Below, in pieces: positions 1 through 11,465 of a DNA stretch of 11,465 nucleotides. The stretch comes from Nitrospirota bacterium. GTDB taxonomy: Bacteria > Nitrospirota > UBA9217. Where the stretch lies: contig JAOUEV010000086.1 of the NCBI GenBank assembly GCA_029858565.1, positions 1 to 11,465 of the forward strand, read 5' to 3'. The notes under the pieces are model-generated. The model was not told where the DNA came from. It did not search any database and worked only from the letters and a program-made list of their open reading frames with translations. The stretch's first letter is position 1; each line of letters opens with the position of its first letter. The position numbers and the translations under genes were made by a program.

Positions 1-30
1 AGAATAGTCGTAATCCTTGTACTTCGCCAT
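1..30 (-). CDS. 5' start of probable IS1182-family transposase (runs off the left edge)
   Basis: Minus strand reads GGGAGG RBS then ATG GCG AAG TAC AAG GAT TAC GAC TAT TCT (MAKYKDYDYS), resembling IS1182-family N-termini as I recall them. Only 10 codons are visible. Confidence 0.55.
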   Translation of the reverse strand, partial: MAKYKDYDYS

Positions 31-118
31 ACGCCTCCCGTGGGTGAGGGGTTTTGGTGCTTCAGAAGTGCGTTTCGATGGCGTCAGTATAGCATAAAAT
101 GACTTTTTCTACACCTTC
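1..118 (-). mobile_element. Left end of probable IS1182-family element, abutting the GTT of an attC site
   Basis: Minus strand GTT|GAAGGTGTAGAAAAAGTC (118-101) resembles IS1182-type terminal IRs. It is followed by an extended -10-like TGCTATACT (94-86), an RBS and the transposase-like start. Confidence 0.5.
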
Positions 119-173
119 AACACGGCGGTCACGCGCCGCCTTTCGGCGCGTCGCTGGTACCGCCAGGTTGTTA
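115..173 (-). repeat. attC site, family A
   Basis: Minus: TAACAAC-CTGGCGGTACCAGCG-ACGCGCCG-AAAGG-CGGCGCGT-GACCGCCGT-GTTGAAG. R'' overlaps the stop codon of 171..419; imperfect palindrome. Confidence 0.85.
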
Positions 174-419
174 CTTTGTCGATTTTGGAATCAGTTCCAT
201 TACCAGATCGGAAGAGCGGATTGATACGAGCCATTCTGTTTCACCTGCTTGATTAGTGCTCTCTAATTCATAGCCCAGTGTCGGATTGGTATAGATTTCT
301 ATGATCGTAGCTTTATCACCAACTTTTGGTGTTCTTTTCCCAGGTAGACACTCCTTCAGAGCAAAGGGCCTATTCAGTCGAACTATTCTTACGATGTCGT
401 ATTGATTGAAATTGTCCAT
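171..419 (-). CDS. DUF4926-like small protein (cassette gene)
   Basis: 82 aa; pattern YDIVRIVR...KVGDKATIIEIY...GYELE...GETEWL...SDL fits DUF4926 as recalled. Stop lies within the attC R'' box. Confidence 0.7.
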   Translation of the reverse strand: MDNFNQYDIVRIVRLNRPFALKECLPGKRTPKVGDKATIIEIYTNPTLGYELESTNQAGETEWLVSIRSSDLVMELIPKSTK

Positions 420-426
420 GTTGTTC

Positions 427-885
427 TTATTGAGCTTCTCTCGATTTATAAAAGCCGTTCCAACTATCGGGCTCCGGATAACTGACTTGATACTCCAGCT
501 GCTGATCTTTGGAAATCTTCCTGTACCATCTATCCCAAGTCATGAGGAATGTTTCTCCATCGCCCATTCTCCAACCAATGGAGCCATGAGGGATTGTGGG
601 GAATGCAATCCATGGTGGGTCTATTTGCTTTCCTGCTTGAATCATGCGTTGCAGACGAAACCATTTCTTTACATTGTAAGGTAACGTTAATATCGCATGA
701 AGGAAACCTGCAATGATAAATAAAAGAGTGCTGACCAAGCCCGACTGTTTGTACGTTGTAATAACCGAGTTAAGATAAAGCCCCGCCTTGGAATTTGACC
801 TTATATATCTCTTATCATTACCGCAGTGGCCGCACATGAATTGCTTATCATCCATCTCCTGGCCGCATTTTGAGCAGAGAATCAT
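427..885 (-). CDS. Zinc-ribbon + TM + 'PPW...SIGWRMG' domain hypothetical protein (cassette gene)
   Basis: CSKC/CGHC pairs at the N-terminus, one hydrophobic helix, C-terminal PPWIAFP..GSIGWRMGDGE..YPEPDSW; GAGGA RBS just after the attC. Confidence 0.8.
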   Translation of the reverse strand: MILCSKCGQEMDDKQFMCGHCGNDKRYIRSNSKAGLYLNSVITTYKQSGLVSTLLFIIAGFLHAILTLPYNVKKWFRLQRMIQAGKQIDPPWIAFPTIPHGSIGWRMGDGETFLMTWDRWYRKISKDQQLEYQVSYPEPDSWNGFYKSREAQ

Positions 886-899
886 ATGAATGTTTCCTC

Positions 900-959
900 G
901 TATAACGCGACGCTGAGTGGCGCGTTCTTCAGCGACCCTCTCGAACGTTCTGGTTAGAT
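900..959 (-). repeat. attC site, family B
   Basis: Minus: ATCTAAC (perfect RYYYAAC, overlapping the end of the TGA stop) CAGAACGTTCGAGAGGGTCGCTGAAGAACGCGCCACTCAGCGTCGC GTTATAC. Confidence 0.85.
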
Positions 960-2056
960 CATTTGGTTGATTTCAACTTGATAAGCAGGTATCTATTGTA
1001 CTTTTCGGCGTAACTTATCGCTGATTCAATGAGTTGCCTATGCCGTTCACTTTCAATATAGTCGCTTGTACCATCCAGGCATCTAATGCCGTGTTTCTGT
1101 ATTAACGCTAAATCGTCCTTTTCAATGCCGGGCGCAGAACACGAATATCCGTAAACTCCCACAAATCTCATATCTTTGTTGGTAATGCGAACATCGACAT
1201 CCTGTGTTGGGTTTTCTAAATGGAGACTTTCCATCGTCCTCTTAAGTAGTTCAATATTCGGAATTGTCATTGTCGATTGCTCTGACCAATTTGAGGAAGC
1301 CATTCCGCTCAGTGCTTCTTTTGCTGTTCGCAGATCGAAATATTCACGTATTTGTCTCCATGGAAAGAGAAGCCTGTTTGCCATAATTACAGCACCTTTC
1401 CATGTCAGTTTGAATCTCTGCTCGTTCGCATCTAGATAATAATAACCGAGTGACGCTTGAACTATAGTCTCTTTATCTAATGCACTATTGATTTCAGCTA
1501 TTGTATTAGTCAAGGAGAGGCCAACGGGATCGTTTGTTCGCTCATCATGGCGGGCAATCCAACGATGATTATCATAAAGCAATTTCAGAGAATATACGTC
1601 AGGATAGCGATAGGTCCTATTTTCTGGATTCGTATATACCCCTAGCATTGGTGAATCGCTAACATTAATCGCATATCCATCCGCGTACCTTGAGGTAATC
1701 TCATGATATCCTACAGCCTGCCCCGCCGTGTTCGTAATGGCGACAGTCGTACCGATGATCATATCTTGCTCATTGTTGAATAAACCAAAATATGTATTTG
1801 TATCAGGGGTAAAATCTATCACCGTCATATATCCGAGAAATCGAAATCCTAATGATTCAAATTCTTTTTTCGAGTCATCAATGTAACCTCTGATGGCAGG
1901 GTCTAACGCATCCGAATCAATCATCCTCACGTTCGCATGTTGCGCGACCCAGTTCTTTGACTTCACTAAGAAAGGACCGACGACCATCGGCCCGAATATA
2001 ACTACAAGCCCACCTGCCAAGAAGAACCACAGAATATATTTCACGATCTTATTCAT
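959..2056 (-). CDS. Membrane-anchored hypothetical protein, probably two-domain (cassette gene)
   Basis: Long ORF; ATG at 2056 (MNKIVKY) has GAGG 9 nt upstream; N-terminal TM helix; C-terminal GVYGY..PG..DGTSD..YAEKYN region. Confidence 0.8.
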   Translation of the reverse strand: MNKIVKYILWFFLAGGLVVIFGPMVVGPFLVKSKNWVAQHANVRMIDSDALDPAIRGYIDDSKKEFESLGFRFLGYMTVIDFTPDTNTYFGLFNNEQDMIIGTTVAITNTAGQAVGYHEITSRYADGYAINVSDSPMLGVYTNPENRTYRYPDVYSLKLLYDNHRWIARHDERTNDPVGLSLTNTIAEINSALDKETIVQASLGYYYLDANEQRFKLTWKGAVIMANRLLFPWRQIREYFDLRTAKEALSGMASSNWSEQSTMTIPNIELLKRTMESLHLENPTQDVDVRITNKDMRFVGVYGYSCSAPGIEKDDLALIQKHGIRCLDGTSDYIESERHRQLIESAISYAEKYNRYLLIKLKSTK

Positions 2057-2077
2057 TAAGGACAACCTCGTTAGGAC

Positions 2078-2136
2078 GGGTTACGTGACGCTGAGGGGCG
2101 CGTTTTTCGCGACACTCTCGAGCGCTCTGGTTGACA
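2078..2136 (-). repeat. attC site, family B, degenerate R' (GTA instead of GTT)
   Basis: Minus: TGTCAAC CAGAGCGCTCGAGAGTGTCGCGAAAAACGCGCCCCTCAGCGTCAC GTAACCC; clearly homologous to 900-959. Confidence 0.8.
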
Positions 2137-2138
2137 CA

Positions 2139-2792
2139 TTACTTTATCTGCTCAATTTTTCGCGTGTCTAAGTTTATTGCATATATATCATTTCGCTCAT
2201 TTGTGACCACTAGTTTCCCGTGCGAGATTTCAAGGGATGTGATGAAGATGTCTTGTGCGTCCTGTTCAAGTTTAGGGTTATATTTGGTTTCGTACACTTG
2301 GAGTTCCCAAAGCATATTGTTGTTCTTGATATCCCAAGCTTCAACATATCCACCGCGTTGAACTTGTTTGTCCATATTCCTGAAATGAGGCGCGATGTAC
2401 TTTATGCCTCTGTAAATAACCGGCTCGACTTCCTTCGGTTCGGCTCTCTTTGCTTTTGCCAGATGTTGCTCTGAACTCGATACAGGTTCTGCAAATGGAA
2501 GCGTCCACCTTCTGTTTGTAAGGTTGTCTATCCATAGATTTGGTGCGTGCCATATCCGTTTGCTAGTGCGATACAGTTTTAAGTCAGGATTATTTGTTTG
2601 TCGTTTGTAATTTTCAAAGTTAATTTCGACAGACGTCAATGTTCTACCCTTCCACGGCACTTCAATATCATCAAAGCCTCCATCTAAACTCATGTAATGA
2701 TAAACAGGCAATGTAAATGAAAGGAGGAAATAGCCAATGAATGCTATAACCGCAATCAAGAAGATCAGTATGTATCGAATTGTTCGATTCAC
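2139..2792 (-). CDS. Membrane-anchored hypothetical protein, probably two-domain (cassette gene)
   Basis: 217 aa, GTG start with AGGAGG upstream; N-terminal TM; beta-rich C-terminal AKRAEPKEVEPV...LEQDAQDIFI region. Confidence 0.8.
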   Translation of the reverse strand: MNRTIRYILIFLIAVIAFIGYFLLSFTLPVYHYMSLDGGFDDIEVPWKGRTLTSVEINFENYKRQTNNPDLKLYRTSKRIWHAPNLWIDNLTNRRWTLPFAEPVSSSEQHLAKAKRAEPKEVEPVIYRGIKYIAPHFRNMDKQVQRGGYVEAWDIKNNNMLWELQVYETKYNPKLEQDAQDIFITSLEISHGKLVVTNERNDIYAINLDTRKIEQIK

Positions 2793-2813
2793 TCGGGATT
2801 AAGGCCTCCTAAA

Positions 2814-2831
2814 GGTACGGCGTTGTTAACT
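2814..2831 (-). repeat. Truncated attC remnant (R'' and left arm only)
   Basis: After the TAG: AGTTAAC AACGCCGTACC, then directly TTTAGGAGG. AGTTAAC is the exact complement of the GTTAACT at this cassette's 5' end (3402-3396). Confidence 0.6.
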
Positions 2832-3368
2832 CTATGATGTCGCATGGAGCCTCGCCTTGCTAACTTGCGTAGCCATTATCCAAAGAATAATGGCAGTTGC
2901 TCCAATTCCGATAATCGAAATTGGCACTTCAAGCAAACCCCATTGCTCATGAATTTCATCTTTAATCTTTGTCCATAAGGATACAGTTGAAATGATACTT
3001 GCTATGACAGTCATTATTGCGACAATTGGTAATGTGAACTGCACATGGCGGTACTTGGAAATTAGTCTTGCCAGGGGAACATAGCCCCACCATTGAAGGA
3101 CTGACAAAATAGGCCAGAATAGATACTGCATCATGAAAAGATGGTCGGTTATATATCCAGGACTCACATAAAGGATTATCGATCTCACTAATACATATGA
3201 GGGCAGATTAAGAACAATCAATAACCAATTAAGCACATCAAAAGTCGTTGGTGTATGGCCGACATCGCGAAAATATGCTTCGTCAATAATGCAGCCATAT
3301 ATGCCAAATGCTGCTATGCAAATCGAACAGCAGATGGAGAGATTTCTTATATATTTCAGCATAGTCAT
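2832..3368 (-). CDS. Multi-pass membrane hypothetical protein (cassette gene)
   Basis: About 5 hydrophobic segments. The track start at 3422 lies inside an attC, so ATG 3368 (or 3362) is more likely. Confidence 0.75.
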   Translation of the reverse strand: MTMLKYIRNLSICCSICIAAFGIYGCIIDEAYFRDVGHTPTTFDVLNWLLIVLNLPSYVLVRSIILYVSPGYITDHLFMMQYLFWPILSVLQWWGYVPLARLISKYRHVQFTLPIVAIMTVIASIISTVSLWTKIKDEIHEQWGLLEVPISIIGIGATAIILWIMATQVSKARLHATS

Positions 3369-3395
3369 CTTTATGGAACAATTATCAACTGCCGG

Positions 3396-3452
3396 AGTTA
3401 ACGCTGCGATCATTCGCCGCAAGGCGGTTCGATGTTGACCGCTTCTTTATTA
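3396..3452 (-). repeat. attC site, family A-like, degenerate R'' (AAA instead of AAC)
   Basis: Minus: TAATAAA GAAGCGGTCAACATCGAACCGCCTTGCGGCGAATGATCGCAGC GTTAACT. Confidence 0.7.
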
Positions 3453-3983
3453 CCTTTTCGCTACCGCAATAAGATCCGCGATATCCTTATGCTGCTGTAC
3501 ATGTGCGAAGCGTGGTTCAATATTCATGACATTCTCAATAAAATTATTAGCAGCATCTAGGATGTTATTAATCATTTGAGTCTTATCAATCGATCCGAGC
3601 TCGATTACAGTCTTCTTTTCCTTGAATGGTTTGGTCACGATTAAGTCAGAAGAACCAACTGCATCTATGACTGATACTTTCGCAAAGCGGCCATCATCAA
3701 CAAATTCAATCCAGCGAGCAGGGTGCTCAATATCACGAATTACGAAGTATTTCACTTCCGAAAGGTGCACGGCCGTCTTGAGAAGAGCTTTAATCCAGTA
3801 ATATAGATCATCCTGAGGATGCATCTGCGTAGCAATTTCTTTGTCAAAATATCCGTAACTTTTATTGCCTACTCGAATTCTGAACTGACCGTAAAATCCC
3901 TCCGCCTCAAGACGATCGGTACTTACGCCGGCATATTCCTTCGATTGAGAAGTTATGGCCAAATCGATTTCAAATGTTTCCAT
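3450..3983 (-). CDS. Soluble hypothetical protein (cassette gene)
   Basis: 177 aa ORF bounded by two attC sites; no confident family. Confidence 0.75.
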   Translation of the reverse strand: METFEIDLAITSQSKEYAGVSTDRLEAEGFYGQFRIRVGNKSYGYFDKEIATQMHPQDDLYYWIKALLKTAVHLSEVKYFVIRDIEHPARWIEFVDDGRFAKVSVIDAVGSSDLIVTKPFKEKKTVIELGSIDKTQMINNILDAANNFIENVMNIEPRFAHVQQHKDIADLIAVAKR

Positions 3984-4027
3984 TGTAAATATTCCGTGCC
4001 TTATTCAAAGTCGTAGTTTTCGTTCTG

Positions 4028-4090
4028 AGATAACAACGCAGGTCACACGTCGCCTTCTGTCGCGACGCTGTGGTACCCGCCTCGTTAGAA
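4028..4090 (-). repeat. attC site, family A
   Basis: Minus: TTCTAAC GAGGCGGGTACCACAGCGTCGCGACAGAAGGCGACGTGTGACCTGCGTT GTTATCT, directly after a TGA. Confidence 0.85.
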
Positions 4091-4222
4091 TCAGTTATGC
4101 TCTGGGTCCAGCAGAACTGAAAGGAAATTCACTTCATCTCTGAAAACGACGCTTTGGTACCTACTACTGCGCAAATGCGGCATGCCGAAACAATTATCAA
4201 TTACGGCTTGAAACGTACACAT
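4091..4222 (-). pseudogene. Mini or remnant cassette (~130 bp; possible 43-aa ORF MCTFQ...PEHN)
   Basis: Short segment between two attC sites; no RBS seen; ends next to R''. Confidence 0.45.
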
Positions 4223-4278
4223 GAGCGCGACGCCGAGGGTCGCGCTTTTTAGCGAACTTTTCGAGCGTTTCATTAGGA
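4220..4278 (-). repeat. attC site, family B, both R boxes mutated
   Basis: Minus: TCCTAAT GAAACGCTCGAAAAGTTCGCTAAAAAGCGCGACCCTCGGCGTCGC GCTCATG; homologous to 900-959 but with AAT and GCT cores. Confidence 0.75.
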
Positions 4279-4767
4279 TCGCTGCTGTTTTAATACTTGG
4301 TATTTGTGCCAAACATTGTCTTCAGGTCCATTCGTTATTCGTTTGTAACACCAACCACATGGAAAAGATTCGCCACCCTTCCAATGCATGGGATATGATT
4401 TTTCGCCAGCAACAGGGTGATCTCTTTCCCATTTTGCATCTGGGGTAGATCTTTTTATAACTTCGCCAATATAAGCGCCATAAGCCGTGGCCAAACCGTT
4501 AACCGCGACAGATGCCTTATCTTTTAGGTATTGTTCATGAAATTTACTCAGCACGGCCTCTACTTGTTCTATAGATTGAACGCTGTAATCCAGTTTAATG
4601 TGATATTCTTTTTCGGCGTCCCTGACCGCTTCTGCTGCAAGATACACCATCATTTCATCTGTATTCTTGAAGTCTGTTATTTGCAGGGATTTCTTTTGTG
4701 ATTTATATATAGACAGACCGGCAATAAATACTAGTGCAACAATAACGCCTATTCCGAGAGCTTTCAT
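4273..4767 (-). CDS. Membrane-anchored DUF3806/DUF6278-like protein (cassette gene)
   Basis: GGAGG RBS; N-terminal TM; LDYSVQSIEQVE...GAYIGEVI...W...FPCGWCYKRI motif. Family assignment is tentative. Confidence 0.75.
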   Translation of the reverse strand: MKALGIGVIVALVFIAGLSIYKSQKKSLQITDFKNTDEMMVYLAAEAVRDAEKEYHIKLDYSVQSIEQVEAVLSKFHEQYLKDKASVAVNGLATAYGAYIGEVIKRSTPDAKWERDHPVAGEKSYPMHWKGGESFPCGWCYKRITNGPEDNVWHKYQVLKQQRS

Positions 4768-4799
4768 TTTACCTCCTGACTGTCAGTCAACTTACGGTC

Positions 4800-5303
4800 T
4801 TATCTTTGTTCACCGCTTGAGGTCCGCCCGTACTCTTTGCCGTTATATTGCAGCACGATGAAGGTAAAGCCATATACTGACTTAAGATCAAAGAGCCCAT
4901 TCGTTTGACTCTTCAAAATCTCAAACCCATCACTCCTCCCGCGGTAGAGAACCGTGAAATTGGAAGCGGAATCCTCTTGCAAGATCCAGTATGCGATAGC
5001 GTGAGCTCCAAAGAAGGCCTTGCAGTAAGCAGACGGCAAGACAAGATAATGATGAATCCCCCTGTTGTTTAATACAATGGGTAGCGAGCTAAAATAGGTT
5101 GCCTGATCGGTGGGGTTTAGATTTAATTCTCTTATACAGTCCTTGAAGTCAATTTCTTCGATCGTACGCATCGCAGACTGAATGCTTGGCGGAGCAATGT
5201 GCAGTTTATGGTCATCGACCAGTGGTTCGAGAGAAAAGGTTTGCGCAGACACCGGCATTGCAACGAGGAACAATAAGAAAAGCACTTTATATGTCATGTT
5301 CAA
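4800..5303 (-). CDS. Secreted hypothetical protein (cassette gene)
   Basis: Signal peptide KVLFLLFLVAMPVSA-Q; GAGGA RBS; start is TTG 5303 or ATG 5297. Confidence 0.8.
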   Translation of the reverse strand: MNMTYKVLFLLFLVAMPVSAQTFSLEPLVDDHKLHIAPPSIQSAMRTIEEIDFKDCIRELNLNPTDQATYFSSLPIVLNNRGIHHYLVLPSAYCKAFFGAHAIAYWILQEDSASNFTVLYRGRSDGFEILKSQTNGLFDLKSVYGFTFIVLQYNGKEYGRTSSGEQR

Positions 5304-5324
5304 TATTTCCTCTTCGGATCTGCG

Positions 5325-5385
5325 GACTAACCGCGCGCCTGACGCGCCGCTTTTGGCGCGTCGCAGTGGACCCGCCTCGTTAGAA
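5325..5385 (-). repeat. attC site, family A
   Basis: Minus: TTCTAAC GAGGCGGGTCCACTGCG ACGCGCC AAAAGC GGCGCGT CAGGCGCGCG GTTAGTC; shares 19 identical bp (5370-5388) with 4075-4093. Confidence 0.85.
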
Positions 5386-5425
5386 TCACATACTTTTCTT
5401 TTCTTCTGCTTCTGTGTGGAGTTCG

Positions 5426-5920
5426 CTACTGATTGATGCTGCCACGAACAATTGCTAACTCGTCGTCTGTGACGACTTCTTGAGCGAACAATGTAGGCCG
5501 ACTTGTAGCTAGGCCTGTCTTTGCTATAGGAAGATGGGCGGCACCGACATCTATCTTGTCCTTTTCTAAGTCCTTTTCATCCATCTTGATCGTAAGGTAT
5601 TTTGTCATGGCTGTTGTAGGTGGAATATTAAATCGATTCGTATAGAGCTTAATATGAACACTGAAATCATCCTGAGCGAGAACTTTGATTACCTTGTATT
5701 TGTCGCCTTCCTTTATCCAATAGAGTCCTCCATCGGTGAAGGCGGCATTGTTACGCCTGTTAATGAAATATTGAATTGCCTTGAGGATCGCCAATCCCAC
5801 GAGTAAAATCACGAGGGTGCTGATCACTATTATAAATAATGTTTTCCCTGTGACAATCTTGAACTGGACAAGCATAAAGGCAATGGCAGGTGCAACGATA
5901 TAAAAAATCCGCTCGATCAT
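5426..5920 (-). CDS. Hypothetical protein with two N-terminal TM helices (cassette gene)
   Basis: ATG 5920 with GGGAG RBS (track start 5947 is inside the attC); soluble part YKVIKVLA..VHIKLY..HLPI..VTDDEL. Confidence 0.8.
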   Translation of the reverse strand: MIERIFYIVAPAIAFMLVQFKIVTGKTLFIIVISTLVILLVGLAILKAIQYFINRRNNAAFTDGGLYWIKEGDKYKVIKVLAQDDFSVHIKLYTNRFNIPPTTAMTKYLTIKMDEKDLEKDKIDVGAAHLPIAKTGLATSRPTLFAQEVVTDDELAIVRGSINQ

Positions 5921-5938
5921 ATTCTCCCTTCCTCTTAA

Positions 5939-5997
5939 AACCAACACGGCGCTGACGCGCCGACCTTGGCGCGTCGCTGTCGAGCGCCAAGTTAACT
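5939..5997 (-). repeat. attC site, family A (best preserved)
   Basis: Minus: AGTTAAC TTGGCGCTCGACAGCG ACGCGCC AAGGTC GGCGCGT CAGCGCCGT GTTGGTT. Confidence 0.9.
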
Positions 5998-6004
5998 GTC
6001 GTGA

Positions 6005-6127
6005 TTAGAAATTGATTGCTGCCTCAGTTCTTTTTGAGTAATCCTCTTCGTCTGTTTTCAAAATCAGATTAATGACCGTTTTGCAATCATTTATATCAAT
6101 CGTATACACCTTTTTAAATAAGAACAA
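6005..6127 (-). pseudogene. 5'-truncated remnant of the first cassette gene
   Basis: AT-rich open frame LFLFKKVYTIDINDCK...TEAAINF* stops 7 bp before the attC R''; upstream the sequence switches to GC-rich. Confidence 0.5.
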
Positions 6128-6151
6128 CGACCGTTTTTCAGGGAACCGCGA

Positions 6152-6175
6152 GGGTCAGGTCCTGCGGTATGACAT
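6152..6175 (+). repeat. GGGTCAG-N11-TGACAT motif (possible REP-like or mobile-element end)
   Basis: GGGTCAGGTCCTGCGGTATGACAT; related copy at 7554-7576; both lie just downstream of a module's last stop codon. Confidence 0.5.
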
Positions 6176-6185
6176 CCCCCGCAAA

Positions 6186-6207
6186 CCTACTTCAACCCTA
6201 CTTCAAC
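6186..6207. repeat. 11-bp perfect tandem duplication CCTACTTCAAC x2
   Basis: 6186-6196 and 6197-6207; includes the stop codon of 6198..6884. Confidence 0.9.
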
Positions 6208-6884
6208 CCCAGCCTCTGCGGCGGAAAGCCGATCGCCTCGCAGGCTTCGCGCAGTGCTTTGCTGTTCTTGACGCTCAATTTGAGCGATCGGAAAACCTGC
6301 GTCAACCGGTCCTCATCGAGCCGCCCCGCAATGACGGCGCACTGGTCAAGGTCCTTGTCCTTCTTACTCTCAACCTGCCGCCGCCTGGCGGTGAGCAGCT
6401 TCTGGACAAGATAAGCTTCCGGGACCGGCGCCCGCACCTGGAAATCGCCGAAGTCGGCGAGGAACGGGAAATCGAGCAGGATATCGACGAACGGCAGGGG
6501 GACGGCGGTGACGTTCCATTTCCTGACGTTTACCACCCCGTCGTCGCTCCCGCCCTTTCGATGAGCGATGAACTCGATGCTGAAATTTTCCCGGGTGAAC
6601 TTCCGGATGCCGGACTGCATCATGACCGGCAGATATCCCAGGCCGGTGATGACGCTCTCGAGATCGGCCGCCTCCCCCCGCTCCCGCGCGGCGAACCTGA
6701 CAGCAAAGTCGATATCGAGAGTGCGAAGAATATAAGGGATGCCGAAGGCCTGCTGGTACAGGGGCATGACCCAGCTGCCGACCAGCATGGCTTCATCGAA
6801 GAAACCTGCCCGATGAAACGCCTGCAGAAGCTCCAGAACCTCAGGGGGAAAGGCGCCCCGGTTCGAGATCGGAATCCACATCAC
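6198..6884 (-). CDS. GSU2403-like (NTP_transf_8) nucleotidyltransferase-fold protein
   Basis: Pol-beta superfamily signature LVGSW...RTLDIDF, plus VPEAYLVQKL and KKDKDLDQ motifs typical of AbiEii/GSU2403-like NTases. Confidence 0.85.
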   Translation of the reverse strand: MMWIPISNRGAFPPEVLELLQAFHRAGFFDEAMLVGSWVMPLYQQAFGIPYILRTLDIDFAVRFAARERGEAADLESVITGLGYLPVMMQSGIRKFTRENFSIEFIAHRKGGSDDGVVNVRKWNVTAVPLPFVDILLDFPFLADFGDFQVRAPVPEAYLVQKLLTARRRQVESKKDKDLDQCAVIAGRLDEDRLTQVFRSLKLSVKNSKALREACEAIGFPPQRLGLK

Positions 6885-6885
6885 T

Positions 6886-7221
6886 TCAACCCCTGCCGCT
6901 CTTCAGGATCTTCGACAGATAGGCGATCCGTTTCTGATAGGATTTCATTTCTTTTTCGATCTTCTTCCGTTGATCGAGCTGTTTCCTGAGCGCCGGGACC
7001 TGTTCAGCCGACACGTGTTGATTGACGACCTTCTCCCCGTCGCGGTACTTCAGGGAGAAATAGGAGTACGCCTTTTCCTTATACCGTTTCTTTCGCTCGC
7101 TCAGCGCGCCTCTGGGCAGATCTGCCAGGGACTTCCGTAGCCCCACAAGCATCTCCTCGCTCCGGCTAAGCTCGTCCCGGAGCATGCCGCTCACGATCTT
7201 GTCCTTTTCCACCACCTTCAT
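6886..7221 (-). CDS. Small basic coiled-coil/beta protein, partner of the NTase
   Basis: 111 aa, K/R-rich; LPRGALSERK...YFSLKYRDGEKVVNQHV; stop is 1 bp from the NTase start. Confidence 0.8.
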   Translation of the reverse strand: MKVVEKDKIVSGMLRDELSRSEEMLVGLRKSLADLPRGALSERKKRYKEKAYSYFSLKYRDGEKVVNQHVSAEQVPALRKQLDQRKKIEKEMKSYQKRIAYLSKILKSGRG

Positions 7222-7256
7222 GCCATAATTATGCCTATTGTGGTGGAAAATTACAA
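7205..7256 (-). promoter_or_regulatory. Sigma70-like leaderless promoter with inverted-repeat operator
   Basis: TTGTAA(7256-7251)-17 bp-CATAAT(7233-7228), 6 nt before the ATG; perfect 11-bp IR TTTTCCACCAC (7205-7215)/GTGGTGGAAAA (7240-7250). Confidence 0.7.
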
Positions 7257-7313
7257 GGCCTTTTTCTGTCTATTCATATTATTGAGCGGAGTCAGCAGTC
7301 ACATATCAGCGAA

Positions 7314-7349
7314 GAGATTGCCGCTCTCCCGCCGGTCGCTCGCAATGAC
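7314..7349 (+). repeat. Half unit of a GAGATTGC...CTCGCAATGAC REP-like palindromic repeat
   Basis: GAGATTGCCGCTCTCCCGCCGGTCGCTCGCAATGAC; ATTGC/GCAAT arms; resembles a widespread intergenic repeat type from memory. Confidence 0.6.
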
Positions 7350-7408
7350 GGAGCAGCAGCATTTGGTATCCGTTTTTCATCCGCATCTTCCGTGTCTAAG
7401 ACGTTCTG

Positions 7409-7542
7409 CTAACCTTCCTGTCTCTCTTCCTCATCCTTCCCCGTCATGAACCGCTAATACAGGAATGACGCGAGAATAAGCACCGCGGCAAGACCTATGA
7501 AGGACGCCACGCGGTAGAGCTGGCCGAGACGCCAGAGGTCCA
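7409..7542 (-). pseudogene. Diverged duplicate of the 3' end of the DUF2339-like gene, with an internal stop
   Basis: 7417-7542 aligns without gaps to 8519-8644 (16 mismatches in 126 bp by manual count); DLWRLGQLYRVASFIGLAAVLILASFLY*RFMTGKDEEERQEG*. Confidence 0.92.
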
Positions 7543-7553
7543 GGAGCCTTTTT

Positions 7554-7576
7554 GGGTCAGACTTAATCATTGAGAT
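7554..7576 (+). repeat. GGGTCAG-N10-TGAGAT motif (second copy)
   Basis: GGGTCAGACTTAATCATTGAGAT, lying between the stop of 7581..7796 and the start of the duplicated fragment. Confidence 0.5.
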
Positions 7577-7580
7577 TCTA

Positions 7581-7796
7581 CTATCCGCAAGCGACACCTG
7601 AGAAATTATCCGACCTGCCGCTTGGTTTCTCCAACCATGATTCCTCGCTGCATGCAAATGAGCCGCATAAACTGCAGTGATACGTTTCGATAGTTGTCTT
7701 TTTAACCTTTCTCGCGTCGTCGAGAATCGGCACAAGAGTGAGGGTTCTTGTCATGATTGTGATCCTGTGGCATTGAATGCAGTATGCGGTCTTCAC
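7581..7796 (-). CDS. Small zinc-ribbon protein (CxxC...CxxC)
   Basis: CIQC and CSLC; GTG start overlaps the brnA TGA (GTGA). Confidence 0.65.
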   Translation of the reverse strand: MKTAYCIQCHRITIMTRTLTLVPILDDARKVKKTTIETYHCSLCGSFACSEESWLEKPSGRSDNFSGVACG

Positions 7797-8143
7797 GGCT
7801 TCCTCTTTCTTCCGGTTTTCGCCCTTTCGCTCCCAGTTCGCCCGGCGCGGTAGACCCCCGGCGCTTCCGCCACGTGCATCGTCTTTTTCTCCGGTTCGAA
7901 TCCATGAGCTTCTACGTATTTGCGCAGGACCGCATTGATCATGGATTGATATCCGCGCCCCTTTTTTTTGAAAAAATCGACGACATCGGGATCAAGCCGG
8001 AGCGTGATCTGTTTCTTCGTGCCGGGCCAGAGGACCGCTTTCTTGAAAAAGTCCTTTTCCAGGGGCGGGATGTCGGTGTAATCGATCTCCGAATCTTTCA
8101 TCGCCTTAACCCGCGCCCAGTCGGTTTTTGATTTCCTTTTCAT
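7793..8143 (-). CDS. brnA: BrnA-family antitoxin (DUF4415) with C-terminal extension
   Basis: TDWARVKAMKDSEIDYTDIP...KKQITLRLDPDVVDFFK..GRGYQSMINAVLRKY; start ATG 8143 overlaps the end of brnT. Confidence 0.93.
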   Translation of the reverse strand: MKRKSKTDWARVKAMKDSEIDYTDIPPLEKDFFKKAVLWPGTKKQITLRLDPDVVDFFKKKGRGYQSMINAVLRKYVEAHGFEPEKKTMHVAEAPGVYRAGRTGSERAKTGRKRKP

Positions 8144-8408
8144 ATGCCTTCCTTTCCCTCGCGTCCGCGCGCCGCAACGAGATGACGCGAATCGTATCGC
8201 TTTCTCGTTCGGTAAAAACGACAACGACGACGGCAATTCCGCGCAGCAACCCCACGCCTCTCCATCGCTTTTCACCGTAATCCTTCCGGGAATCGTGCGT
8301 CACGAACAGCGGTGCGTCGCCGGAAAAGAGTTCCAGCGCATCGGCAAGATCAAAGCCGTGCTTCCTGATGTTTGTCTTGTTCTTTTCCTCGTCCCACTCA
8401 AACCGCAT
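8106..8408 (-). CDS. brnT: BrnT-family toxin (DUF497 ribonuclease)
   Basis: MRFEWDEEKNKTNIRKHGFDLADA...YGEKRW...VVVFTER...IRVISLRRA..ERKAY. Confidence 0.95.
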   Translation of the reverse strand: MRFEWDEEKNKTNIRKHGFDLADALELFSGDAPLFVTHDSRKDYGEKRWRGVGLLRGIAVVVVVFTERESDTIRVISLRRADARERKAYEKEIKNRLGAG

Positions 8409-8412
8409 TCTC

Positions 8413-8441
8413 ATTGTAGCCCCAATTGTAGTTACAATCAA
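8413..8441 (-). promoter_or_regulatory. brnTA promoter with palindromic operator
   Basis: TTGATT(8441-8436)-17 bp-TACAAT(8418-8413); palindrome ATTGTA-NN-TACAAT at 8425-8438. Confidence 0.7.
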
Positions 8442-8504
8442 GCGTTTTCATACGAAGAGTATCCGACTTTATCCAGCCCTTCTCCGCTTCTTCCTTGGCC
8501 AAGC

Positions 8505-11465
8505 CTAATGTGCACTCCCCTGTCCTTCTTCCTCATCCCTCCCCGTCATGAACCGCTGGTACAGGAACGACACCAGGATCAGCACCGCGGCAAGGCCGAT
8601 GAACGAGGCCACGCGGTAGAGCTGGCCCAGCCGCCAGAGGTCCATGAAGAAGATCTTGAACGTGGTCCCGACCATGAGTATCAGCGCTGCCCAGCGGACC
8701 TTGCTGGTCTTCCACTTGATGCCGACCACGAGCAACCCGATGCTGTACAGCAACCAGGAGAGACTATAGGCAAGCTGGTGTGCAAGGTTGCCGTAGGTCT
8801 CGAGGCTGAAACTTCTTCCTGTTTCTGTGAAAATGCTCGATATCTCGATGTTCAGCACGCAGAAGACCGCGACAGCGAGTGCCGTGCCCCAGAAGGCGCG
8901 CAGCGTGGGAGAGATGAACGGCCAATGCTGCTGCGGCTTGTTCAGCGTGAGGCAGAGGAGCGCGACGATGGCGAAGAGGAATACGAGCGTGGGCGTGTTC
9001 AGGAACGGCGTCATGGCGCCGAATGCCGCGCTGTGAACGAACGGATAGGTGAGCGCCTTGGCAAGCCCTGCGAGCACCAGCACCACGCCTGCGATCCGGA
9101 AAGGCCGGTCCAGTCCCCGCGGCCAGTACAAGAGCCCCAGGCCGTAGGCCAGCCAGCCTGCTGCCGAGCCCACTGCCATGGATGACGACTGGTGAAAGAA
9201 GAATTGGAAAGGCTGGCCCGGCTGCACGACCGCGCTCATCTGGACCTTCACTGCCACGAAGCCTGTCAGGAGCAAGAGCAATACAAGCAGATTGTAGAGG
9301 TCCCGCGAGGTCTGCTGTTTCAGTTCCCTAAGCACCAACAAGGCAAGCACGACCAGCGCATAGAGGTATGCGGGAAGGCCGAGGTTCAGGAATGGCGACA
9401 TTCCCGGTACGAACCGCGGGAAGAGCACCGGCAGTACGAGCAGGAAGCCCGTGCCTATGCAGAGGACGATAAGCCCCACATGGCGCATTTCCACCGAGAG
9501 CTTCAAGCGCGACCAGATGAGCGCTCCGTAGGTCAGCCAGACCAGGCTGTAGCAGATGGCCTGCACAGCATCAGGTCCCGGCACGATGCGGAAGAGCTGA
9601 CCTGTTTCTGCAAAGATGTCGGCTATTGCCAGATTCAGCAGAAAGAACCCGCTGCCGACCGCGAGCCAGCGGAAATATTCCGTGAGATCCGCGCCCTTGA
9701 GCTTCCGGTCAGGGAAGCCGGAGAGCGGCACAGCGAATGCGAGCGCGGCGACCGCTCCGGCAACGGCGAGCACAGCAGCGTTCAGGATGACCATGTCACC
9801 CGAATGCTTCATCTGCGGCAGGCTGAAGAACAGGAGCATAAGCCCGATGGGCGCCATGAACGATGCGACCCAGCGAAGTCCCTCGTGCACCACGCGGCGA
9901 TTGAGCCAGAGCAGCAGCATGGACTCAATCACGAGTGTGAGCCCGATCCAGCCCTGGTCGAGCAGCATCACCGGCACCGACGAGATATAAAAGAGCAGCA
10001 CCCCGCCGTGGAAGGCAAGCACCGCGTTCCGTTCAGGCCGGTCCTTAAGCCGCGACTGGAGCATGGCCACTGCAGGCAGCTTCACCACGGCCAAAGCGAG
10101 CGGCAGCCACCCGCTTGTCTCTCGCGGCCAGATGTGGTCAGCAGCCCAGACGGCAAAGAGCCCCTGCCCTACCTCGAAGAGCGCCCAGGCCATCCAGAGA
10201 CGCGACCATTTCTCCATGGACTTAAAGAAGAGAAAGGGTGCGATAACAGCAATGACGAAGAATGCCGCTGACCAAAGGAAACCTACGACATGCAGGTCCA
10301 GCGACAGTTCGGGCCGGAACATCCAGGCAGCCTGACTGATAAGCGACGACAGGAGGACCACCATCCCCATGACCGCTGCCTCAAGCCGCCGGACAAGGAA
10401 GATGCTCAAGGCCAGGAAGCAGGTGAGCGTGACCATGCCTGGTTCGGGATGGAGCGGACGCTGCAGCCAGAAGGACGCGGCAAGCAGGATGAATACAGCG
10501 GACGCGGGGAAAGCGGAGAGCCATTCCGTCACGACCGGGTTCACGGTCCAGCCTGCTGGGGCGGAAGGATCCTTCGTGAGCGCCGCCCTCCAGTGGTTCA
10601 TTTTCTTGAGAGCGTAGACCATGGCGAGCGCCAGGACCGCTCCAGCCAGGAGCAGGAACCCGAGGAAGACCGGGCTGCCGAGCTCAGGGGGCATGCGAAA
10701 TAGCCATGTAAGGCCGCAGACAAGGAAGAACAGCACAAGCAGACCTGCCTGCACGATCGCGCCGAAAACGAGGCTCACCATAATACCCATTACTTGTAAG
10801 AGCAGGATCACGGGCCAGAGCCAGAAGGCGATGTCCTGCTCCTTCAGCACCACGGCAAGCAGCATCACGCCAAGAGCCACGGGAAAAACGCGGAACCATC
10901 CCAGGTTGATCTTGTCGAGCCCATAGCGCCGGATGAGCAGCACCGGCCCCAGGCCGCCGGCAACGCCGTACACCAGAAGACCGAGAAATCCCCAGGAGAG
11001 CGTACGGGGATCGAAGCGCAGCCATGTCCAGAGAAAAGCGACCACGAACATGATGGCGCCGTAGGGCACGACGCTGCCAAACCATCTGCGGTCGCGGAAA
11101 GCGAGCGCCATGCTTCCTGCCATACCGAAGATCGTGATCAGCAGCGGCCCGATGCCGTCCCGGTCCAGGAGCAGGAGGCTGGCAATGGTTGCCGAGAGAT
11201 AGAGCGTGTAGCCGGACCAGGACAGGAGACGATTCCCTTTGGACGACTCCCTGGCCCGGTCGAGAAAATAGCTGAAGAGAGCCAAATTGGCGATGAAGAC
11301 CCCGGCGATCACGATGCTCTCGGGATGGATGCGGCCGGAGAAGGCTGCGAGGAAGAGCGTGGCGAGCGTTCCCACGGTGGCGATGAACAAGAGGAGCGCC
11401 GAACTGAGACGCCGCACTACCTGGAACAGGCCGACATTCACCACAGCGAGGTAGACGAAGAGACC
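8505..11465 (-). CDS. DUF2339-like large polytopic membrane protein (5' end beyond the window)
   Basis: More than 980 aa of repeated TM helices; frame stays open to the window edge; C-terminal KIFFMDLWRLGQLYRVASFIGLAAVLILVSFLYQR is the typical DUF2339 tail. Confidence 0.88.
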   Translation of the reverse strand, partial: GLFVYLAVVNVGLFQVVRRLSSALLLFIATVGTLATLFLAAFSGRIHPESIVIAGVFIANLALFSYFLDRARESSKGNRLLSWSGYTLYLSATIASLLLLDRDGIGPLLITIFGMAGSMALAFRDRRWFGSVVPYGAIMFVVAFLWTWLRFDPRTLSWGFLGLLVYGVAGGLGPVLLIRRYGLDKINLGWFRVFPVALGVMLLAVVLKEQDIAFWLWPVILLLQVMGIMVSLVFGAIVQAGLLVLFFLVCGLTWLFRMPPELGSPVFLGFLLLAGAVLALAMVYALKKMNHWRAALTKDPSAPAGWTVNPVVTEWLSAFPASAVFILLAASFWLQRPLHPEPGMVTLTCFLALSIFLVRRLEAAVMGMVVLLSSLISQAAWMFRPELSLDLHVVGFLWSAAFFVIAVIAPFLFFKSMEKWSRLWMAWALFEVGQGLFAVWAADHIWPRETSGWLPLALAVVKLPAVAMLQSRLKDRPERNAVLAFHGGVLLFYISSVPVMLLDQGWIGLTLVIESMLLLWLNRRVVHEGLRWVASFMAPIGLMLLFFSLPQMKHSGDMVILNAAVLAVAGAVAALAFAVPLSGFPDRKLKGADLTEYFRWLAVGSGFFLLNLAIADIFAETGQLFRIVPGPDAVQAICYSLVWLTYGALIWSRLKLSVEMRHVGLIVLCIGTGFLLVLPVLFPRFVPGMSPFLNLGLPAYLYALVVLALLVLRELKQQTSRDLYNLLVLLLLLTGFVAVKVQMSAVVQPGQPFQFFFHQSSSMAVGSAAGWLAYGLGLLYWPRGLDRPFRIAGVVLVLAGLAKALTYPFVHSAAFGAMTPFLNTPTLVFLFAIVALLCLTLNKPQQHWPFISPTLRAFWGTALAVAVFCVLNIEISSIFTETGRSFSLETYGNLAHQLAYSLSWLLYSIGLLVVGIKWKTSKVRWAALILMVGTTFKIFFMDLWRLGQLYRVASFIGLAAVLILVSFLYQRFMTGRDEEEGQGSAH

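Follow-up and report, generated by a model that had tools for sequence, protein, structure and literature searches.

One of two similar motifs beside an integron-type cassette array in a Nitrospirota genome is assigned to the solo terminal inverted repeats of TIRtrons

Introduction

The window analysed here, the entire 11,465-nt contig JAOUEV010000086.1 of a Nitrospirota bacterium (assembly GCA_029858565.1), carries two similar short motifs next to genes of toxin-antitoxin (TA) type, and it raises the question of whether these motifs are copies of one signal by which such genes are inserted at the locus. A first-pass annotation, made from the letters alone, had described a same-strand motif (GGGTCAG and TGA(C/G)AT separated by 10 or 11 nt) that ended each of two TA-like modules. 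It had proposed that a transposase related to the REP-associated tyrosine transposases (RAYTs; REP, repetitive extragenic palindromic) used the motif in trans as a one-ended signal, delivering such modules serially to this hotspot with the far end resolved by homology. We refer to the motif at 6152-6175 as copy 1, to that at 7554-7576 as copy 2 and to the genome of the window as G000, in which the window is contig C67; the comparison set comprised 64 genomes of the bacterial family, distributed over 19 genera. The names TIRtron and TIRYT, which the answer requires, were given to RAYT-like genes with flanking terminal inverted repeats (TIRs) rather than REP hairpins, as set out in passages of Di Nocera et al. 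(2013, PMC3733652). Our reading, to which we attach a probability of roughly three in four, is that copy 1 is a solo TIRtron TIR situated at a rearrangement joint, that copy 2 is a probable chance match, and that the interval holding them is a patchwork. The first-pass observation was thus confirmed in part, and its interpretation was likewise supported in part.

Results and Discussion

The two motif sites and their occurrence in the genome

Both strings are exact and lie on the plus strand, and each lies just past the last stop codon of a module, as the first-pass annotation had stated. Copy 1 is situated 22 nt beyond the stop codon (6198-6200) of an NTP_transf_8 gene, and copy 2 is situated 4 nt beyond the stop codon (7581-7583) of a 71-residue open reading frame (ORF) with CxxC motifs. 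The truncated gene said to lie close to each motif was found at a distance of 12 nt or less, and both truncated genes (a cassette remnant and a DUF2339 tail) are genuine. The motif pattern gave 0 matches in 200 shuffles, a test that must be regarded as post hoc, since the two window sites themselves had supplied the pattern. A scan of the whole genome returned 5 matches versus about 0.65 expected; these were the two window sites, the left ends of two TIRYT genes (contigs C44 and C120) and one site on C24. Of the three matches outside the window, two each preceded by ~28 nt the start of a gene that opens with MARPLRIEYPGAVYHVTSRG. The link drawn in the first-pass annotation between motifs of this type and REP-associated HUH Y1 transposases of the RAYT group also proved sound, as evidenced by about nine genes or gene fragments of one such subfamily in G000.

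TIRYT genes of the genome and the assignment of copy 1

Fourteen Y1_Tnp matches were detected in G000, 12 of them above the cut-off, and tblastn located nine N-termini of the TIRYT subfamily. The 283-residue protein encoded at C51:46218-47066 scored 89.1 bits against NCBIfam REP_Tyr_transpos (cut-off 80) and matched Pfam Y1_Tnp with an E value of 3.6e-12, and its C-terminus gave weak matches to helix-turn-helix (HTH) families (HTH_23, E 6.6e-5 and 23.0 bits against a gathering score of 24.6; HTH_28, E 0.016). The TIRYT protein sequence contains the strings HYH and RYVVLNPV, which we take to be catalytic in the Y1 transposase. The upstream regions of the nine genes were unrelated to one another up to (A)GGGTCAGGT / (A)GGGT..CAGGT, at which point similarity started. 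An inverted pair of motifs brackets the C51 gene (46166, plus strand; 47093, minus strand), and further inverted pairs were found on C120 (6946, minus; 6758, plus) and C66 (2711, plus; 3632, minus). The stretch at C120:6758-6946 is a 189-bp deletion derivative of a TIRtron that resembles a miniature inverted-repeat transposable element and consists of a left TIR, the first 28 TIRYT codons and a right TIR. TIRYT paralogues are several per genome and diverged, each with its own TIR variant.

Copy 1 and the right TIR of the C51 gene agreed at 23 of 24 positions. An nhmmer profile built from 35 subfamily-A copies from other loci and genomes, with the window excluded, matched 6141-6182 at 31.2 bits (genome-wide E 3.7e-7), the second-best match in the genome, and a profile of the 10 gene-flanking copies alone, again with the window excluded, detected copy 1 at 12.2 bits. 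Among 532 GGGTCAG-anchored sites in the genome copy 1 ranked 12th, and the sites scoring 11 or more all looked family-like. With up to 3 mismatches allowed, the 23-nt core occurred 102 times in 30 of the 64 family genomes and in 11 of the 19 genera, compared with a single occurrence of the reversed control. The conserved TIR unit is about 42-45 nt long, and its outer tip, (A/G)GGGTCAGG, fits the consensus GGGGWSAS; the tip reads GGGGTCAG in C118:7242 and C135:69918 and AGGGTCAG (a 7/8 fit) in the other eight seed copies and in the window. No conserved hairpin was found in the repeat when seven copies were folded as DNA on both strands, there being no shared stem within it. About 30 TIR copies are present in G000, mostly as singles, and most copies are considered solos because a TIRYT gene adjoined the repeat in just 3 of the 31 loci examined. 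Judged by these sequence comparisons, copy 1 is the core of a solo TIR of the genome's TIRYT/RAYT-like Y1 genes.

The element was placed in the TIRtron/TIRYT class because it agrees with the published class at the points tested. Many TIRtron TIRs share GGGGWSAS, and some make moderately abundant repeat families, according to passages of Di Nocera et al. (PMC3733652); most TIRYTs belong to TnpA-Y1 subclass 2.1 and have HTH_23, HTH_28 or Bac_DnaA_C C-termini, according to passages of Quentin et al. (2018, PMC6006769). Agreement extends to the RAYT-like Y1 HUH protein, the bracketing of the gene by TIRs without a REP hairpin, the GGGGWSAS-type tip and the dispersed, moderately abundant TIR family composed mostly of singles; a C-terminal HTH, only weakly matched here, may be a further common trait. 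The present case differs in that the host belongs to an uncultured lineage in which several diverged paralogues have TIR variants of their own, in that a core of ~23 nt is kept across 11 of 19 genera, and in that the outer tip often carries tandem duplications.

Classical REP/REPIN-RAYT systems, reportedly described by Nunvar in 2010, by Bertels and Rainey in 2011 and by Ton-Hoang in 2012, are similar in that the REP_Tyr_transpos cut-off was passed here and in that the repeats are also dispersed between genes, often just downstream of them. Unlike those repeats, which are imperfect palindromes that fold into a hairpin and bear a GTAG or CGTC tag, the TIR has neither a conserved hairpin nor GTAG at either end, and it is present in tens of copies rather than hundreds, mostly as singles and not as REPIN doublets. 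The transposase, moreover, is multi-copy (about 9 copies or fragments of one subfamily) rather than single-copy, single-copy RAYTs being the general contrast in passages of Bertels et al. (2017, PMC5581495).

Copy 1 at a rearrangement joint

The features surrounding copy 1 are as follows.

5940-5995, minus strand: attC-like site that closes the truncated cassette, the last of about seven in 1-6000 (self-BLAST repeats, TAAC...GTT ends, internal palindrome)
6008-6148, minus strand: remnant of a cassette gene truncated at its 5' end, 44 terminal codons (84% identical to protein P0004, residues 100-143)
6141-6182, plus strand: unit assigned as a solo TIR of the TIRYT/TIRtron family, subfamily A, with copy 1 as its core (nhmmer profile)
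6187-6208, no strand: 11-nt tandem duplication, 2 x CTACTTCAACC, across the stop codon of the nucleotidyltransferase (NTase) module (read from the sequence; tandem scan)
6176-7267, minus strand: two-gene NTase module (Pfam; homologues with 67-74% nucleotide identity in at least six family genomes)

The cassette remnant aligned, at 84% identity, with residues 100-143 only of 143-residue proteins, and hence ~99 codons are absent from it. The homology ended at about 6139-6148, which is the left edge of the TIR unit. On the right of the TIR core, the NTase module adjoins it directly with its conserved 3' end. This module consists of a 111-residue gene (6886-7221) and the NTP_transf_8 gene (6198-6884; Pfam E 1e-24), with a predicted promoter-like site at 7228-7256 (TTGTAA-17-CATAAT). 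Homologues, of which at least six exist, were 67-74% identical at the nucleotide level over about 6176-7267 in six other family genomes, so that the module is a discrete unit of ~1.09 kb whose two ends are shared by at least seven genomes, the flanks being unrelated to each other. Because the TIR lies between the truncated cassette gene and the conserved end of the module, which is self-contained and shared horizontally, it marks a rearrangement joint; and since the remainder of the cassette gene is absent beyond the TIR, at least one event besides simple TIR insertion is required. In support of the first-pass reading, copy 1 is exactly on a breakpoint; copy 2 lies 12 nt from one.

None of the six homologous NTase modules had a TIR at its 3' end, although in two of the six a TIR was present 0.45-1.1 kb past the promoter end. 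Because of this 0/6 count we consider that the module moves without the TIR and that the TIR is not its end signal. A TIRtron is a Y1 HUH transposase gene of TIRYT type (Y1_Tnp plus C-terminal HTH) with inverted TIRs, and in the mechanism that we propose solo TIRs would arise through the action of the transposase in trans or as the remains of decayed TIRtrons. The joint between the cassette gene and the NTase module may then have been created by deletion, by recombination at the TIR or by insertion of the module beside it.

Alternatively, copy 1 could be all that is left of the ends of a decayed TIRtron in which the TA-like NTase module took the place of the transposase gene, a history that we judge unlikely. 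The module does abut the TIR on its inner side, a like layout exists with PIN-Phd genes in G049 and a PIN gene in G051, the truncated derivative on C120 is an instance of a reduced TIRtron, and an E. coli REPtron locus was replaced by a TA operon, as stated in a passage of Quentin et al. (PMC6006769). However, no second inverted TIR was found flanking either the NTase or the BrnTA module, the window containing no further match above 1.2 bits, and the DNA between the TIR and the NTase module showed no trace of TIRYT coding sequence; furthermore, replacement alone leaves the truncated cassette gene on the outer side unexplained.

Two local features of the module end were observed in addition. 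A hairpin across the NTase stop codon is kept by compensatory change, with CCCCCACA/TGTGGTGG in the other modules and CCCCCGCA/TGCGGCGG in the window. The 11-nt duplication at 6187-6208 is situated 12 nt to the inside of the TIR core and was absent from all six homologous modules, which have 11-12 nt at this site versus 23 nt in the window.

Copy 2 and the DUF2339-BrnTA interval

To the right of the NTase module the following features bear on copy 2.

7417-7542, minus strand: T2, an orphan 3' DUF2339 fragment broken at 7542/7543 (87% identity to 8519-8644)
7543-7622, no strand: stretch X, which contains copy 2 (BLAST, 7558-7622 at 80% to the congener G003)
7581-7796, minus strand: 71-residue CxxC...CxxC ORF with its last 14 codons inside X (translation)
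7793-8441, minus strand: type II TA pair, BrnT (8106-8441) and BrnA (within 7793-8275) (Pfam)
8505-11465, minus strand: intact DUF2339 membrane protein gene whose 5' end extends past the contig edge and whose 3' end (8519-8644) is termed T1 (Pfam)

Copy 2 gave no match in the profile searches, either at E<=100 with the 10-copy profile or at E<=1000 with the 35-copy profile. Among the 532 anchored sites it was tied at ranks 20-37 with 17 sites not recognisable as family, and it lacks the 9-mer GGGTCAGGT that is invariant in the gene-flanking seed copies. In G003 the counterpart of window 7558-7622 abuts the 3' end of an intact DUF2339 gene with no BrnTA between, and a weaker similarity of about 70% (alignment by eye) continues leftward to about 7543; the GGGTCAG half of copy 2 reads GGACCAG in that genome. 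Copy 2 is most likely a chance look-alike, composed of the 7-mer and 5 of 6 bases, in a stretch of ~80 nt that appears to be native downstream of DUF2339. The treatment of the two sites as one element or signal consequently could not be upheld, copy 1 being a significant family member and copy 2 failing every family test.

A quite improbable alternative is that copy 2 is an old, heavily decayed TIR whose position downstream of DUF2339 predates the divergence of G000 and G003. By this account it is pertinent that the tip 7-mer is intact in G000, that the 11 nt to its left are similar to the left extension of the unit and ATTGA.ATTC to the 3' box of subfamily B (both by eye), and that GA likewise follows GGGTCA in one genuine right TIR (C66:3632). 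Yet even very permissive thresholds yielded no profile match, the site ranks with non-family sites, and both the GGACCAG tip in G003 and the missing 9-mer count against it.

The remainder of the interval has a composite appearance. T2, which corresponds to Pfam DUF2339 profile positions 627-656, was 87% identical to T1 and 86% identical to the G003 tail, and so is about equidistant from the two (86-87%), and the closest sequence to the T2 region was that of G063 (93% over 7388-7458), which suggests a mosaic of segments with origins in different lineages. The intact DUF2339 gene (Pfam E 1.2e-31) reaches the profile end (659/659) and was 82% identical in nucleotide sequence to its G003 orthologue. 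BrnT and BrnA were recognised with E values of 9e-23 (BrnT_toxin) and 3.5e-18 (BrnA_antitoxin), respectively. A BrnTA homologue in G010 was 75% identical at the nucleotide level and was found in another context, with no DNA similarity to the window outside 7906-8448; the CxxC ORF is absent after BrnA in that genome, and X is absent there too. No relatives of the 71-residue CxxC ORF were found among the 39-125-residue homologues sought, and it had no Pfam or NCBIfam match. Compared with G003, the window contains an 895-bp indel (about 7623-8517) that comprises most of the CxxC ORF, BrnA and BrnT, and is bordered by a short direct repeat, CCTGCC / CCTGTCC (7615-7620 and 8519-8525), which fits a microhomology-mediated deletion and a small target duplication alike.

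The 14-20-nt core of X was also considered as a module-end signal or repeat family in its own right and was rejected: a scan of the family gave 17 matches versus 6 for the control, with only G003 and G061 related, and a wider scan of 185,579 species genomes gave 21 loci, again related only in G003 and G061. The G061 sequence, from another genus, contains an exact 20-nt match to window 7563-7582 at about 1495-1514 of contig C23 (locus L031); there the match lies immediately upstream of a Phd/PIN pair's promoter and operator. A separate observation concerns the C-terminal peptide ..QRFMTGKDE.. of the DUF2339 protein (window 8505-8560), which also ends unrelated genes at L018 (G017:C13) and L023 (G000:C117); in G017 this gene end is directly followed by a TIR of another subfamily. 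The shared end may be a C-terminal signal or a mobile gene end.

TIR copies, TA genes and outer-tip duplications

Several observations weigh against our reading of the locus. With G003 as the sole comparison, BrnTA may equally have been gained in G000 or lost from G003, and the left flank and tip of copy 2, 12 nt from a breakpoint, loosely resemble (by eye) the 5' half of the TIR unit. TIR copies, furthermore, lie closer to TA genes than the genome average: in G000, at least one of 31 TIR copies was less than 1 kb away for 2 of 13 PIN genes (permutation P = 0.014), and a PIN gene was within 1 kb in 4 of 31 subfamily-A (REP-A) loci, compared with ~0.2 expected by our own arithmetic from 639 PIN matches in about 215 Mb. 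The four loci are in G049, G051, G009 and G008, those of G049 and G051 being orthologous, and in both of these (Phd-paired in G049) the TIR abuts the 3' end of the PIN gene, as the TIR abuts its module in the window. At L088 (G016:C324), a RelE/HI1419-type toxin gene (103.9 bits, cut-off 62.85) and its 108-residue partner lie between two 91-nt direct repeats (322-412 and 1442-1532; 99% identical; starts 1120 nt apart), each of which ends in a TIR.

A six-frame family search placed PIN genes beside the C25 and C117 TIR copies in G000. The ORF surveys (12 solo-TIR regions of G000 with 55 ORFs, in which Pfam gave no TA family, and a further survey of 131 ORFs) took the longest ORF on either strand, a choice that missed PIN genes and two TIRYT genes, and the TA counts derived from them are accordingly lower bounds. 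By our own reading, about 14 copies have the gene beside the inner end of the TIR directed towards the TIR and about 9 have it directed away, at distances ranging from 5 to several hundred nt, and many of the neighbours were ordinary genes (S21, HD-GYP, flavin reductase). Because orientation and distance vary in this manner, the proximity of TA genes and TIRs looks like shared residence in flexible DNA, and the simplest reading is that TA modules and solo TIRs both accumulate there. The E. coli REPtron locus taken over by a TA operon (PMC6006769) is a precedent for such an association.

Of 52 TIR copies, 13 had a tandem duplication of 7-17 nt (at most 1 mismatch) that adjoined or included the outer tip, versus 139 of 2080 random control positions, while on the inner side the counts were 6 of 52 and 121 of 2080, without clear enrichment. 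The 52 copies were those of G000 together with loci L083-L113.

It is against these data that the serial delivery of TA-like modules by a RAYT-like enzyme acting in trans on a one-ended motif has to be weighed, and we hold it to be very unlikely. RAYT-like genes with the motif do exist, copy 1 is on a true breakpoint, the neighbourhood of TIR copies is enriched in TA genes, a far end anchored by homology would suit the duplicated DUF2339 tail, and the outer-tip duplications suggest that tips are sites of DNA processing. The outcomes that the first-pass annotation had named as fatal to this proposal (a motif that is not enriched, does not coincide with breakpoints and has no RAYT-like gene in the lineage) were thus not what was found; the proposal fails on other tests instead. 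Copy 2 lies outside the family, and its half-site is not conserved in G003. The notion that the motif ends modules is not supported, given the lack of a TIR at the 3' end of all six NTase homologues and the occurrence of the copy-2 stretch in G003 without BrnTA, and the G010 BrnTA homologue is accompanied by neither the CxxC ORF nor X. As for delivery in trans, direct evidence was lacking, the transposase gene was beside only 3 of 31 repeat loci, and neighbour orientation at the inner end was mixed, with many neighbours being ordinary genes.

A bolder idea, and one that we regard as a long shot, is that TIRYT TIR tips are live sites of processing in trans and that solo TIRs are joints at which self-promoted modules, TA pairs foremost, are swapped. 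Were this true, the RelE pair of G016, the PIN genes of G049 and G051, and the NTase pair of the window with its 11-nt duplication would all be footprints of a single activity of nicking and rejoining; copy 2 would still be irrelevant.

The cassette array and other features of the window

All genes of the window are on the minus strand. Positions 1-6000 consist of short ORFs interspersed with about seven repeats that have attC features, namely TAAC...GTT ends enclosing a GC-rich imperfect palindrome (self-BLAST and alignment). Two integron integrase genes are located on other contigs of G000 (C137 and C128; TIGR02249, 381 and 355 bits, cut-off 265). Because of the attC-like repeats and these two integrases elsewhere in the genome, 1-6000 is a cassette array of the integron kind that lacks an integrase within the window. 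Rightward of the array the order is truncated cassette, NTase pair, T2, CxxC ORF, BrnA, BrnT and intact DUF2339. TA modules commonly occur in or beside integron cassette arrays, and the left 6 kb of the window is such an array, of the kind termed a cluster of attC sites lacking integron integrases (CALIN), with the TIR abutting its last, truncated cassette. The motif sites nevertheless differ from attC: the R'' (RYYYAAC) and R' (GTTRRRY) cores and the imperfect palindrome are absent from 6141-6182 and 7543-7622, and no attC site follows either TA-like module in the window.

IS91, ISCR and Helitron elements capture DNA by one-ended rolling-circle transposition, with Rep-type enzymes and ori and ter ends. 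The first-pass idea resembles these systems in its single end signal with adjacent cargo, but no such gene was found here, and neither was co-inheritance of cargo and end.

One further feature is situated between the NTase promoter and the DUF2339 fragment.

7314-7399, no strand: two short dispersed repeats, about 7314-7349 and 7367-7399 (dozens of 30-45-nt matches)

The matches to these repeats (82-95% identity) were in many family genomes and are unrelated to the TIR; the first repeat includes a ...GTCGCTCGCAATGACGG-type string, which genomes of this kind commonly contain. An Rfam search of 5800-8700 returned nothing at E<=1.

Conclusions

With copy 1 read as a solo TIR and copy 2 as a probable chance match, the segment from 6.0 to 8.6 kb would represent accessory pieces assembled in a flexible region and not the product of one motif-guided insertion system. 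What appeared to be a new insertion signal would reduce to the solo end-repeat of a described, little-studied TIRYT/TIRtron system plus a chance match, and the locus should not be read as a non-integron capture system. At the same time, the TIR core is conserved over many genera of an uncultured lineage, and the window adds a clean example in which a TIR coincides exactly with a rearrangement joint bordering an integron cassette array. If the modest co-localisation with TA genes and the tip duplications hold under a controlled survey, they would offer a concrete handle on the role of TIRYT enzymes.

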